Of a stretch of 24,000 nt of DNA, positions 1 through 8,749 are shown piece after piece; within the stretch, counting starts at the first letter, position 1, and each line of letters opens with the position of its first letter. Both the position numbers and the translations under genes were made by a program. The DNA comes from Rhodanobacter sp. A1T4 (GTDB lineage: Bacteria; Pseudomonadota; Gammaproteobacteria; Xanthomonadales; Rhodanobacteraceae): positions 86,158 through 110,157 of the forward strand of contig NZ_JACHCP010000012.1 in assembly GCF_014207185.1 (NCBI RefSeq), in the 5' to 3' direction. Below the pieces are notes generated by a model that saw only the letters and a program-made list of their open reading frames with translations, was not told the DNA's origin and ran no database searches.

Positions 1-357
1 TGGCGCGGCATGCAAGTTAGCTACGAGGACAAATTTCCCATTCAAAGCGACCCCTTGGGGCATGACGATGAACTAGATAAAGAGTTCGCTTTGAGAATGA
101 TCTCACAAAAGTCTACAGATTGGCGTTATGAAAAGGAGCGGCGTTTGCTCCATTTTGGATCCTCTAATCTTCTCCTTCCCTATACCCCTAAGGCCCTCAC
201 GGGGGTGATTCTTGGATATCGCTGCGAAGATACAGTGCGTTCCGATGTGCTCAATTTGATTGAGAAGCGCGAGGAGAAATTTGGTTACAAGGTTCGCATA
301 TATCGAGCAACTATGTCAGATAGTCGTTACCATTTTTCCATCAGCCGAGAACGATAA
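1..357 (+). CDS. DUF2971-family protein, C-terminal part (5' end outside the window)
   Basis: Frame 1 is open from base 1, with no stop before the ATG at 10. The stop is TAA at 355-357. The translation has the C-terminal W-x-Y-E-x-E-x-R signature I associate with DUF2971 (KSTDWRYEKERRLL). By eye it aligns with the C-terminus of the 2667..3572 product (PKALTGVILGYRCED vs PEALTAVLLGMRISD). Confidence 0.6.
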   Translation, partial: WRGMQVSYEDKFPIQSDPLGHDDELDKEFALRMISQKSTDWRYEKERRLLHFGSSNLLLPYTPKALTGVILGYRCEDTVRSDVLNLIEKREEKFGYKVRIYRATMSDSRYHFSISRER

Positions 358-803
358 GTTTCAGCACCTCCATTATTGGCCGATTACCGTTCGCGTGCGG
401 GCATCCCTGCTTATGGCCAAGCTAACTGTCTGTGCCGATGGCTGGAAGGCTTTAAAGCCTCGTCGCACCAAAGCACTCAGAGAAGGAGGTTGCGGATGTT
501 TCAGCTGCAGCGATCAGAAGCTGATTGAAGCAGTACGGGCCACGGATAGCGATGAAGTCGGTGTGGTTGGGCTGTACCTCGCCACCAAGTTCACACTGGA
601 ATCGTTCGAAACACCAGAACAACGCGCTTAACCCTTATTCTAGCCTTGCTGGGGCGGCGCACCTTTGCGGATCGTATCGAGCATCTGGTCAACTGACTTT
701 TGGCCTGATCGGCCAACCAATCGCAGATGCTAGCTCGCCGTACCGGCGGTCATGTATTCACAAGGTGATAGTTTTGAAACTCGTCGACACTCAGCCGCTC
801 GAA

Positions 804-1535
804 ATGTACTTGGACACAGCTGATCGCCTACAAGCAGAGGTCAAGATTCGCCAGCCAGAATGGTTTGGCGTGCTCATAGAGCTCGATGCGATCTGGCGAA
901 CCGAACTTTTCGGTGAGGCGACGCACCTTGCTCCTGTACCGGCAAGCATCGTTGTTCAGAGCTTCTATTTTTGGCTTGCTGCCGTGCGAGTGGCGTTGTC
1001 CGGACATGCCACTGCGGTATATCCACTTCTCAGAACTGGGCTGGAGGCCGCTTGTTACGCCTACAAGCTGGTGAAAGATCCGACACTCACGTCGGTCTGG
1101 CTCGCGCGTGATAGAAATGCCGAGAGCCGCAAGAAGTGCAGGCAAGCATTCACCTCGGCCGTATCTGAAGTAGCTAAGTTGCCAGAAATTGATCCTCTTC
1201 TAGGTACCGCCATCCGCGAGATGTACGACGCGTGCATAGACTTTGGAGGGCATCCTAATCCACGCGCATTATTTGATCACCTCAACATGTCGGACAACAC
1301 CGGCAGTGACGCGGTCATGATGAGTATCGTTGGCTTGAATGGTCCAACATCGGTGAATACTGTGCGTGCGCTGGCTGCTGCCGCTGAACACGGATTCTTC
1401 GCCATTATCATCTGCGCCAATGCAACTGGAGACCACCCTCGCGCGGACACCCTTCAGCAACGCCTGGATGCTGTGATAGTGAGGGTTCAAGCGCTGACCA
1501 AACCGTATCTCAACGAGACCCGCAAGACACCGTAG
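804..1535 (+). CDS. hypothetical protein, helical, no family recognised
   Basis: This is the 3' part of track ORF 525..1535. I start it at ATG 804 because the 93 upstream codons are S/P/G-rich and do not look protein-like. GTG 765 and TTG 525 remain possible starts, and no start has a strong SD. It lies 50 nt upstream of the DUF4238 gene on the same strand. It contains R-x5-H (RVALSGH), which is only weakly reminiscent of a HEPN motif. Confidence 0.55.
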   Translation: MYLDTADRLQAEVKIRQPEWFGVLIELDAIWRTELFGEATHLAPVPASIVVQSFYFWLAAVRVALSGHATAVYPLLRTGLEAACYAYKLVKDPTLTSVWLARDRNAESRKKCRQAFTSAVSEVAKLPEIDPLLGTAIREMYDACIDFGGHPNPRALFDHLNMSDNTGSDAVMMSIVGLNGPTSVNTVRALAAAAEHGFFAIIICANATGDHPRADTLQQRLDAVIVRVQALTKPYLNETRKTP

Positions 1536-1585
1536 ACGCTGCCAGGTCGGTTAGATTATTTGCTTAATTAAGTAGGGACACCTCG

Positions 1586-8088: not shown

Positions 8089-8243
8089 CGTCGGTCTCCA
8101 GTTTCTCGATAGATATTGTGTTAACAGGCATCGTAGCGTCGCGCGCGAGCGTCTTTCCTAGCGCTACGGCATTTCAGATTGCGAAGCCGCATTGCACTAG
8201 CACGTTACCCCTCACTTCGGCGCACCTCCCTGGATACTTTCAG

Positions 8244-8448
8244 CACATACTTTGGTTGTCAAAAGGCGCGCTGCGGCCTGCGCCACTGCAACCTAAGTGA
8301 TTGTTTCAATTAGACGCACACCTACTTTGGTTGTCGTTGGACAGCAAAGTATGTGCACGGCAAACCCAAACTACACACACTTTGGTTTCCATAAGTGCTC
8401 ACACATGGGTGTCATGCCCACTGGTTGGGCATGACAGCAATGTATGTG
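8244..8448. repeat. Cluster of a ~16-nt motif (CACATACTTTGGTTGTC and variants) in both orientations
   Basis: Plus-orientation copies:
- 8244-8260 CACATACTTTGGTTGTC
- 8317-8335 CACACCTACTTTGGTTGTC
- 8374-8390 CACACACTTTGGTTTCC
- 8400-8413 CACACATGGGTGTC (degenerate)

Inverted copies:
- 8340-8355 GACAGCAAAGTATGTG
- 8433-8448 GACAGCAATGTATGTG

Copies 8317-8335 and 8340-8355 face each other across 4 nt. Confidence 0.8.
8410..8436. repeat. Perfect 11-bp inverted repeat (TGTCATGCCCA ctggt TGGGCATGACA)
   Basis: Read directly from the sequence. The stem extends imperfectly outward to about 8400-8448, where it merges with two copies of the repeated motif. Confidence 0.85.
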
Positions 8449-8749
8449 CCTAGTTGTACAAACAATTGGTACCCTATCTATCCGTTCCCGCTCATCGACC
8501 ATTATCTCGTGCAAGGGCGATCCCGAGCTCGCGACAAGCTATGGACCGAGGTCGAGTCCCGTCAGGGAGCCCGCGACGATAGACTGGTTTGGCACATTCA
8601 TGCTGCGCCCCGGTTTTCAAAAGCAGTACGGCGTACACAACAGCCAGTTATGCGTGATGCTGTCAGAAGGTCTTGGTCATTAATAAGAAGTGACCTCGAA
8701 GGGTCAGCTACTGATCTTCGCCCCGGCAACGGCCATACGACCCTTCAGA

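Follow-up and report, generated by a model that had tools for sequence, protein, structure and literature searches.

Genes, composition and ends of the low-GC block

The window analysed here, a 24,000-nt stretch of the genome of Rhodanobacter sp. A1T4 (G000:C12:86158-110157), opens with a low-GC block of accessory genes that is very probably the right 8.4 kb (window 1-8420) of Tn-A, a defence-carrying Tn7-like transposon. Six open reading frames (ORFs) lie between positions 1 and 8088. Five are on the plus strand: the 3' end of a first PDC-S31/DUF2971 gene (copy 1, 1-357; PADLOC PDC-S31 1.1e-15 for the tail inside the window), a gene for a protein of up to 336 aa that belongs to no family (525-1535; single copy in the genome, with a true start that may be further downstream), a gene for a 341-aa DUF4238 protein (1586-2611; Pfam DUF4238 5.5e-28), a second PDC-S31/DUF2971 gene (copy 2, 301 aa, 2667-3572; PADLOC PDC-S31 3.9e-45) and a gene for a conserved 414-aa protein of an unnamed family (3914-5158). 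The sixth, on the minus strand, encodes a 954-aa STAND-like P-loop NTPase (5224-8088) with the Walker A motif GGSGLGKT and the Walker B motif LFILD. The initial annotation of the window had described positions 1-8088 as free of housekeeping genes, and profiling of the six ORFs with Pfam, NCBIfam and PADLOC bears this out. Its division of the genes into DUFs, orphans and STAND-like NTPases is correct for the DUF and STAND-like members and wrong for the 414-aa "orphan", which has at least 161 homologue clusters, all unnamed, at 49-85% identity in Beta- and Gammaproteobacteria.

The non-coding stretch of about 660 nt that was reported to close the block is real: the 661 nt at 8089-8749 contain no convincing gene and carry repeats at 8244-8449. 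The right edge of the block falls inside the window, as had been proposed, at position 8420. Window 1-8420 has a GC content of 0.541 compared with a genome mean of 0.599, which among 8-kb windows of the genome is the 1.5th percentile; for tetranucleotide distance it ranks at the 98th. Low GC extends for another ~14 kb upstream, with an onset at C12 ~72 kb, and the foreign stretch runs to 94.6 kb. For the entire 22.3-kb element, GC is 0.526 (0.6th percentile) and the tetranucleotide distance lies at the 98.5-99.8th percentile, a profile distinct from the genome average. The four hand counts of GC given earlier for single lines of the window (22/60, 29/60, 34/60 and 38/60) were all exact when re-counted.

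The unit of the repeat cluster is ~18 nt long and occurs in both orientations, and we searched for it in the whole 5.08-Mb genome. A motif search that allowed substitutions only saw the repeat at the window edge alone and missed the left end, because the left-end copies differ by one indel. The left end was then found by an indel-tolerant search and by a k-mer scan for inverted repeats (C12:70-96 kb), which pairs C12:72240-72300 with window 8397-8465. Within the genome, the end-site motif is confined to the two ends of Tn-A. The element extends over C12:72241-94577 (22,337 bp) and is bounded by the terminal inverted repeat TGGGCATGAC...GTCATGCCCA, with TGGGCA...TGCCCA termini. At C12:72241 the left end opens with TGGGCATGACACCAATGTTTGTAC, followed by two more sites. 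The right end (window 8244-8420, plus strand) terminates in GTGTCATGCCCA and contains five putative transposase-binding repeats of 17-22 nt, located by motif searches at 8244-8261, 8319-8336, 8340-8356 (inverted), 8374-8391 and 8399-8420. Three predicted transposase-binding sites therefore lie in the left end and five in the right, and we take the repeat cluster at 8244-8420 to be the array of such sites at the right end of Tn-A. Right ends of the same type also occur in relatives. The right end is followed by a 5-nt spacer (CTGGT, 8421-8425) and by the left end of a second element, Tn-B, which we describe below; the "perfect hairpin" in the repeat cluster is just the head-to-head arrangement of two transposon termini.

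The left ends of Tn-A, Tn-B and the elements in the related genomes G010, G008 and G007 can be aligned exactly from the T of TGGGCA onward, and the sequences that precede this base are unrelated. A 24-nt end motif (up to 3 mismatches) was found in 33 of 201 family genomes and in 13 of 30 genera, with no matches for the reversed control pattern; the two ends of Tn-A agree with it at 24/24 and 22/24 positions. Two other interpretations of the left end were dropped. A left terminus at TGTTTGTAC is not compatible with the homology breakpoints of the relatives, which set the terminus at TGGGCA, 15 nt further out. A native PadR operator, suggested by the palindrome that the left end shares with relatives, is contradicted by the relatives with empty sites, which have no palindrome, and by those that share it, which carry related elements or remnants of them.

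To the left of Tn-A, 14 of the 18 genomes of the genus retain the flank composed of padR and a HAAS/Sensor gene; the DNA to the right of the block (a TetR gene and a monooxygenase gene) occurs in one relative only, elsewhere in that genome. In G004, G017, G001 and G008, the padR flank adjoins the homologue of a cyclophilin gene that lies in the window from ~21,920 onward. This native right flank, formed by the gene for a cyclophilin-type peptidyl-prolyl isomerase and its upstream region, spans 21880-22882 on the plus strand (Pfam Pro_isomerase 1.7e-20). The joined flanks of G000 are colinear with the sequence of G004 and of G017, both of which have an empty site, and therefore C12:72241-108036 (35.8 kb) is inserted DNA. 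The alignment of the flanks to relatives thus yielded the empty sites that the initial annotation had hoped to find, and the accessory nature that it gave to the block is supported by these unoccupied sites and by the foreign composition. It erred in placing ordinary GC-rich genes to the right of the edge: positions 8750-21638 are missing here in relatives and are not backbone, which resumes at ~21880. The left end lies 19-20 nt from the conserved sequence GAAGTCATG in G000, G010, G008, G007 and Dyella. Judging from these alignments, the insertion appears to be specific for both site and orientation, with empty sites in relatives.

The transposition core and the state of tnsAB

Both the mobilising genes and the left boundary were found upstream of the window, where they had been predicted to lie, within the 20 kb that directly precede it (L002, C12:66158-86157). 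A leftward extension had been proposed as a way to reach an integrase and an att repeat; it did lead to a mobiliser, in the form of a TnsAB/TnsC/TniQ module instead of an integrase, and to no tRNA or att-repeat system. This core module (C12:76639-81505, minus strand) lies 4.7-9.5 kb upstream, with its genes in the order tnsAB-tnsC-tniQ. The tns operon occupies the middle of the element, and the cargo is split between two bays, one on each side. Between the left end and tniQ lie, on the plus strand, the genes for an Old-family nuclease (L002:6648-8558; PADLOC Old 2.7e-65) and for an nSTAND1 NTPase (L002:8722-10128; Pfam nSTAND1 1.4e-10). The core follows on the minus strand, with a TnsD-like protein of the TniQ family (L002:10482-11876; Pfam TniQ 1.6e-7), the 331-aa ATPase TnsC (L002:11877-12872), TnsAB in two pieces encoded by overlapping ORFs of 274 and 580 aa (L002:12869-13693 and 13606-15348) and a 112-aa ORF of no family (L002:15506-15844, equivalent to C12:81663-82001). 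The second bay begins on the plus strand with a SIR2-like protein (L002:17954-19264; PADLOC SIR2 2.3e-14) and with copy 1 of PDC-S31/DUF2971, a 320-aa protein whose gene runs from L002:19395 to window 357 (C12:85552-86514; PADLOC PDC-S31 7.5e-49).

The identity of the core proteins is established by comparison with known structures. The 580-aa ORF matches the TnsAB of PmcCAST (PDB 9bw1_M) at 2.4e-17, over the nuclease region and over a second stretch in the DDE region. Residues 50-284 align with residues 20-260 of the template, and E88, D130 and E143-x-K145 correspond to the E, D and ExK of its TnsA-type nuclease motif. The D...D...E triad is conserved in the alignment of TnsAB from G000 and its homologues. 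TnsC matches PDB 8fcu_Q at 3.2e-7 over residues 9-277, and is kept directly after tnsAB, at 54-61% identity, in all relatives compared. The TniQ protein matches PADLOC TniQ_IB (2.6e-12) and the TnsD structure 8v32_J (9.9e-13). For the three core proteins, 8v32_J, 8fcu_Q and 9bw1_M are the best and the sole significant PDB matches.

By analogy with Tn7 and with PmcCAST TnsABCD, TniQ would recognise a fixed sequence within the intergenic region from which padR and the cyclophilin gene diverge, and TnsC would bridge TniQ and TnsAB. Acting on the arrays of ~20-bp sites at both ends, TnsAB would then cut and paste the element at this fixed position. The cargo would consist mostly of stand-alone anti-phage genes that are swapped between related elements, in the two bays around the tns operon.

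Several observations weigh against the interpretation of Tn-A as a Tn7-like transposon carrying defence genes. On the core ORFs, the Pfam models rve (0.02) and AAA_22 (0.066) both remain below threshold, and the Pfam TnsA models give no match on the fused TnsAB. The tns operon lies in the middle of the element, unlike that of Tn7, which adjoins an end, and two of the left-end sites are inverted relative to the terminal site. A clean 5-bp target-site duplication is missing: the sequence that adjoins both termini of Tn-A is limited to the 4 nt CTGG (TCTGG at the left, CTGGT at the right), and a search in every register of the termini of Tn-A, Tn-B and their composite returned no exact 5-bp duplication. 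Four other genomes have tandem junctions of a right end, a short spacer (1-4 nt) and a left end, and over all junctions the spacer varies from 1 to 5 nt (CTGGT, CGTG, CT, AG and 1 nt), with a clean 5-bp duplication at none. In the four genomes where the flanks were read (G000, G166, G053 and G063; the flank of G186 was not compared), the last bases of the outer left flank recur in the spacer. The defence role of every cargo gene is predicted from homology or association. Finally, tnsAB is frameshifted, and Tn-A as assembled would be unable to move by itself.

This last point deserves closer attention. The homologues of tnsAB encode uninterrupted proteins of ~800 aa, with which both pieces of G000 are colinear. 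The reading frame switches right after GATRIQPPP, in a run of six C (L002:13640-13660, C12 ~79,800), after the second D of the DDE triad and before its E, leaving the catalytic E (in AEN) and the C-terminal third in the other frame. The public protein call for tnsAB is a truncated form of 552 aa, and the frameshift is therefore not an artefact of our analysis. Either a true pseudogene or a homopolymer error would explain it. If it is real, Tn-A may be a dead fossil, that is, a fixed chromosomal defence island that changes only by homologous recombination with related elements. The loss of the catalytic E and of the C-terminal third speaks for this possibility, as do the truncated call in the protein collection, which places the frameshift in the deposited sequence, and the exchange of cassettes, exemplified by a DUF4238 gene that alone is 80% identical in nucleotides to its Dyella counterpart when the core reaches only ~57-66%. 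On the other hand, the defect is a single 1-nt change in a C6 homopolymer, a typical site of assembly or sequencing errors, the remaining core ORFs are intact, the ends are well preserved relative to the family motif and the composition has not been ameliorated. A related element could also provide the transposase in trans, although we found none in the G000 genome able to do so. Overall, we consider it quite possible, if not quite probable, that Tn-A is such a fossil.

A side observation concerns the 112-aa ORF directly upstream of tnsAB. It is 60-70% identical in G010, Dyella, G053, G126 and a metagenome contig, a higher conservation than that of TnsAB. Pfam, PADLOC and PDB returned no match for it, and it may act as a regulator or represent a fifth gene of the core.

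A probable second element in tandem

The Tn-B left end (8426-8472, plus strand) starts with TGGGCATGACAGCAATGTATGTGC, followed by a degenerate inverted site, and aligns from its first base with the other left ends. The Tn-B right end (21815-21879, plus strand) finishes with 13 nt, GTGTCATGCCCAC, that are identical to the right-end junction of Tn-A. In this end, GTGTCATGCCCA recurs at 21868-21879, with a second site upstream at a similar spacing, and homology to the right flank of the relatives resumes at window 21887. We read 8426-21879 as Tn-B, a putative older element that lacks tns genes and stands in tandem to the right of Tn-A.

Alternatively, the interval could contain no second transposon, and could be native or otherwise acquired DNA next to a stray copy of the left end, with the "right end" at 21868-21879 as a chance match. 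The composition of the interval resembles that of the native genome, none of its ORFs is a transposition gene, cusCBA homologues (CusA 85% aa identity) lie elsewhere in the nearby backbone of G001, and the right ends of Tn-B and Tn-A align weakly beyond the terminal 13 nt. Five observations make this explanation quite unlikely: the left end at 8426 matches four other left ends base for base; the 13-nt GTGTCATGCCCAC falls within 8 nt of the resumed homology to the right flank of the relatives; an R-end-like terminus in G008 lies at the same 7-nt distance from CTGCTAAGTTG as the Tn-B right end; the whole interval is missing at the site in G004, G017 and G008; and tandem right-end/left-end junctions are present in four other genomes. 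The content of Tn-B is absent from the padR-cyclophilin site of G001 as well.

Tn-B, read as a second element, contains at 8750-21638 genes for TetR, a Tet(X)-like FAD monooxygenase, AraC, an alpha/beta hydrolase, DUF4142, an aldo-keto reductase and a Cus/Czc-type RND trio (Pfam, NCBIfam). The TetR gene is divergent from that of the 377-aa FAD monooxygenase (8750-10669), just inside the left end. Tet(X) is the best NCBIfam match of this monooxygenase (6.4e-40), with a score of 137 bits that is far under the 750-bit cutoff. The RND trio (15431-21209) has homologues in G001 (L025:7471-13177) with aa identities of 85% for CusA, 67% for CusB and 48% for CusC. There, cusCBA occupies another position of the backbone, between the homologues of C12:113081 and 113292, which points to either relocation or capture on separate occasions.

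Low GC, accessory genes and a sharp edge would also fit a classical genomic or defence island, a prophage remnant or an integrative and conjugative element inserted at a tRNA/att site by a tyrosine or serine recombinase, as the initial annotation seems to have had in mind, but this origin is extremely unlikely. Neither the window nor the 40 kb upstream of it (64 kb in all) contains a tRNA, the ORFs of the 22-kb block match no integrase or recombinase family, and TnsAB, TnsC, TniQ and Tn7-type ends are present instead.

Cargo, related elements and known systems

The defence-family cargo of Tn-A comprises Old, SIR2, two PDC-S31/DUF2971 proteins, DUF4238 and the nSTAND1 NTPase. PADLOC returned defence-family matches for the translated ORFs, and the defence-like content attributed to the block is upheld by matches to several known or candidate families, of which PDC-S31 is a candidate only. 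With several known or candidate anti-phage genes clustered in accessory DNA, Tn-A can be classed, from predicted functions, as a defence island. The two PDC-S31/DUF2971 copies are 25-28% identical to each other. Rousset et al. (bioRxiv 10.1101/2021.01.21.427644) observed protection against T7 by a DUF4238 protein that came from a P2 hotspot. The DUF4238 gene of Tn-A shows 81% protein and 80% DNA identity to a cargo gene of the Dyella subtropica element (L042:5853-6884), with a similarity that ends with the gene, whereas the core proteins of the two elements are only ~57% identical. We therefore conclude that single genes are exchanged between elements as cassettes. The neighbouring 336-aa and DUF2971 genes of G000 are not shared alongside DUF4238 in Dyella.

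Three cargo proteins are poorly characterised. The 336-aa protein has no match in Pfam, NCBIfam or PADLOC, and no similarity to the SMEK_N cargo protein of a related metagenome element. Homologues of the 414-aa protein are hosted by Achromobacter, Ralstonia, Stenotrophomonas, Pseudomonas, Pantoea and others; the one in Achromobacter adjoins CBASS and BrxR, and overlaps by 4 nt a 433-aa gene of no named function. The AlphaFold2 model of the 414-aa protein (pLDDT 91.5, pTM 0.90) gave no Foldseek match in PDB or BFVD. For the 954-aa protein, the AAA_22 and nSTAND5 matches are below threshold. Its low-confidence model (pLDDT 55.8, 4 sequences) suggests a STAND-like layout, with a P-loop core, then helical and winged-helix parts, and then a long all-helical C-terminus. 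The protein is very rare: a search of 5.8 billion clusters yielded only three homologues, of which those from Aquitalea aquatica and from a metagenome contig are 45% identical to it and the third 25%. Within the N-terminal 200 residues, D60 and E74 do not vary, a hint of a nuclease-like effector.

Related elements recur at the same site. In G010 (Rhodanobacter sp. MP7CTX1), a near-identical left end is accompanied by intact tnsAB (an 852-aa ORF), tnsC and tniQ at 39-57% aa identity. As cargo, this element carries Gabija (GajA E = 0, GajB 9e-254) in the bay that separates the left end from tniQ, with PifA (2e-116) in the opposite bay. Its right end was not found, and the element spans a contig break or rearrangement. 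The Dyella subtropica element has the same PadR/Sensor/DUF1501/DUF1800 flank and a left end 20 nt from GGAAGTCATG, and carries a reverse transcriptase (RVT_1) with an HTH protein, DUF4238, HEPN_AbiU2 and an Xre-type antitoxin. In a metagenome contig, a right end lies beside the cyclophilin flank, with SMEK_N and DUF2971 as cargo. Only the 112-aa ORF, TnsAB, TnsC and TniQ are common to all elements compared. The bay between the left end and tniQ hosts a module of two or three genes that differs in each element, with Old and nSTAND1 in G000, GajA and GajB in G010, and the reverse transcriptase, the HTH protein and a small ORF in Dyella. A mini-element of ~1.8 kb occupies the same site in G008 (L022:18033-19859, G008:C1), with a good left end, the R-end-like terminus GATGTCATGTCCA and no tns genes.

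Among known systems, Tn-A resembles the homing core of PmcCAST TnsABCD (type I-B2 CAST; PDB 9BW1/8FCU/8V32) in its fused nuclease-DDE transposase of ~800 aa, in the gene order tnsAB-tnsC-tniQ, in the arrays of ~20-bp sites at both ends and in its apparently site-specific insertion. In contrast to PmcCAST, it has no cas genes or CRISPR array, a proteobacterial host and one TniQ-family gene only, and its predicted target is the divergent intergenic region between padR and the cyclophilin gene rather than a tRNA gene. The two share little sequence similarity (E 1e-7 to 1e-17), and Tn-A goes undetected by most Pfam Tns models. When we considered a CRISPR-associated transposon, the PADLOC-scanned ORFs showed no match to a Cas model and there was no repeat array; scans for tandem-repeat and CRISPR-like arrays found none, and an Rfam scan gave no matches. 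Fusions of tnsA and tnsB are known (PMC10293859).

Tn7-like transposons are delimited by arrays of TnsB sites, and their adjacent insertions yield multiple ends (PMC8649781). Their cargo shows an enrichment of defence genes, which occur in 26% of them, with OLD and sirtuins among the commonest (PMC8649781). The elements of Benler et al. 2021 (mBio, PMC8649781) are similar to Tn-A in having boundaries made of binding-site arrays and in carrying OLD, sirtuin and single-gene defences, and similar to Tn-A and Tn-B in the multiple left and right ends produced by side-by-side insertion. They differ from Tn-A in that its cargo lies on both sides of the tns operon, and the TnsB of Tn-A scores 0.02 against PF00665, the TnsB model of that survey. 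With Tn7 of Escherichia coli (attTn7 downstream of glmS), Tn-A would share a TnsD/TniQ selector with TnsC and the chemistry of TnsA and TnsB; it does share a fixed position and orientation, multi-site ends and 5'-TG...CA-3' termini. Unlike Tn7, it has TnsA and TnsB fused, no TnsE and tns genes away from the right end, it shows no clean 5-bp duplication, and it is inserted between divergent genes and not downstream of a gene. Apart from the 5-bp duplication, in whose place only the 4-nt CTGG is seen at both termini, the defining features of Tn7-like elements that we tested are all present in Tn-A.

Tn7-like transposons with defence cargo are already well described, and Tn-A is a further example. 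Its novelty is modest and concerns the attachment site, a core with cargo to either side, the conservation of the 112-aa gene, the unusual junctions and the cargo genes that are uncharacterised. Among the papers searched, none connects Tn7-like elements to a padR site. A more far-reaching proposal, which we regard as rather unlikely, is that Tn-A belongs to an undescribed Tn7 lineage of Rhodanobacteraceae that largely escapes the standard Tns HMMs, homes to the divergent promoter region between padR and the cyclophilin gene, and is characterised by the 112-aa fifth core gene, a palindromic left end, variable junctions of 1-5 nt, tandem arrays and two bays shuttling single-gene immune modules; the 414-aa, 954-aa and 336-aa proteins would then be new anti-phage systems.

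These results do not overturn current understanding, and replace a vague "island" with a bounded mobile element that has ends defined at the base pair, a defined attachment site and an identified transposition machinery. They show that defence genes have been moved and swapped among Rhodanobacter, Dyella and relatives, with three different cargoes at one site: Old/SIR2/DUF2971, Gabija/PifA, and a reverse transcriptase with AbiU2. The bounded cargo provides a short list of uncharacterised candidates for new anti-phage functions. In addition, Tn-A adds a putative non-tRNA, Cas-free homing target to the fused-TnsAB branch, which is of interest for targeted DNA insertion.

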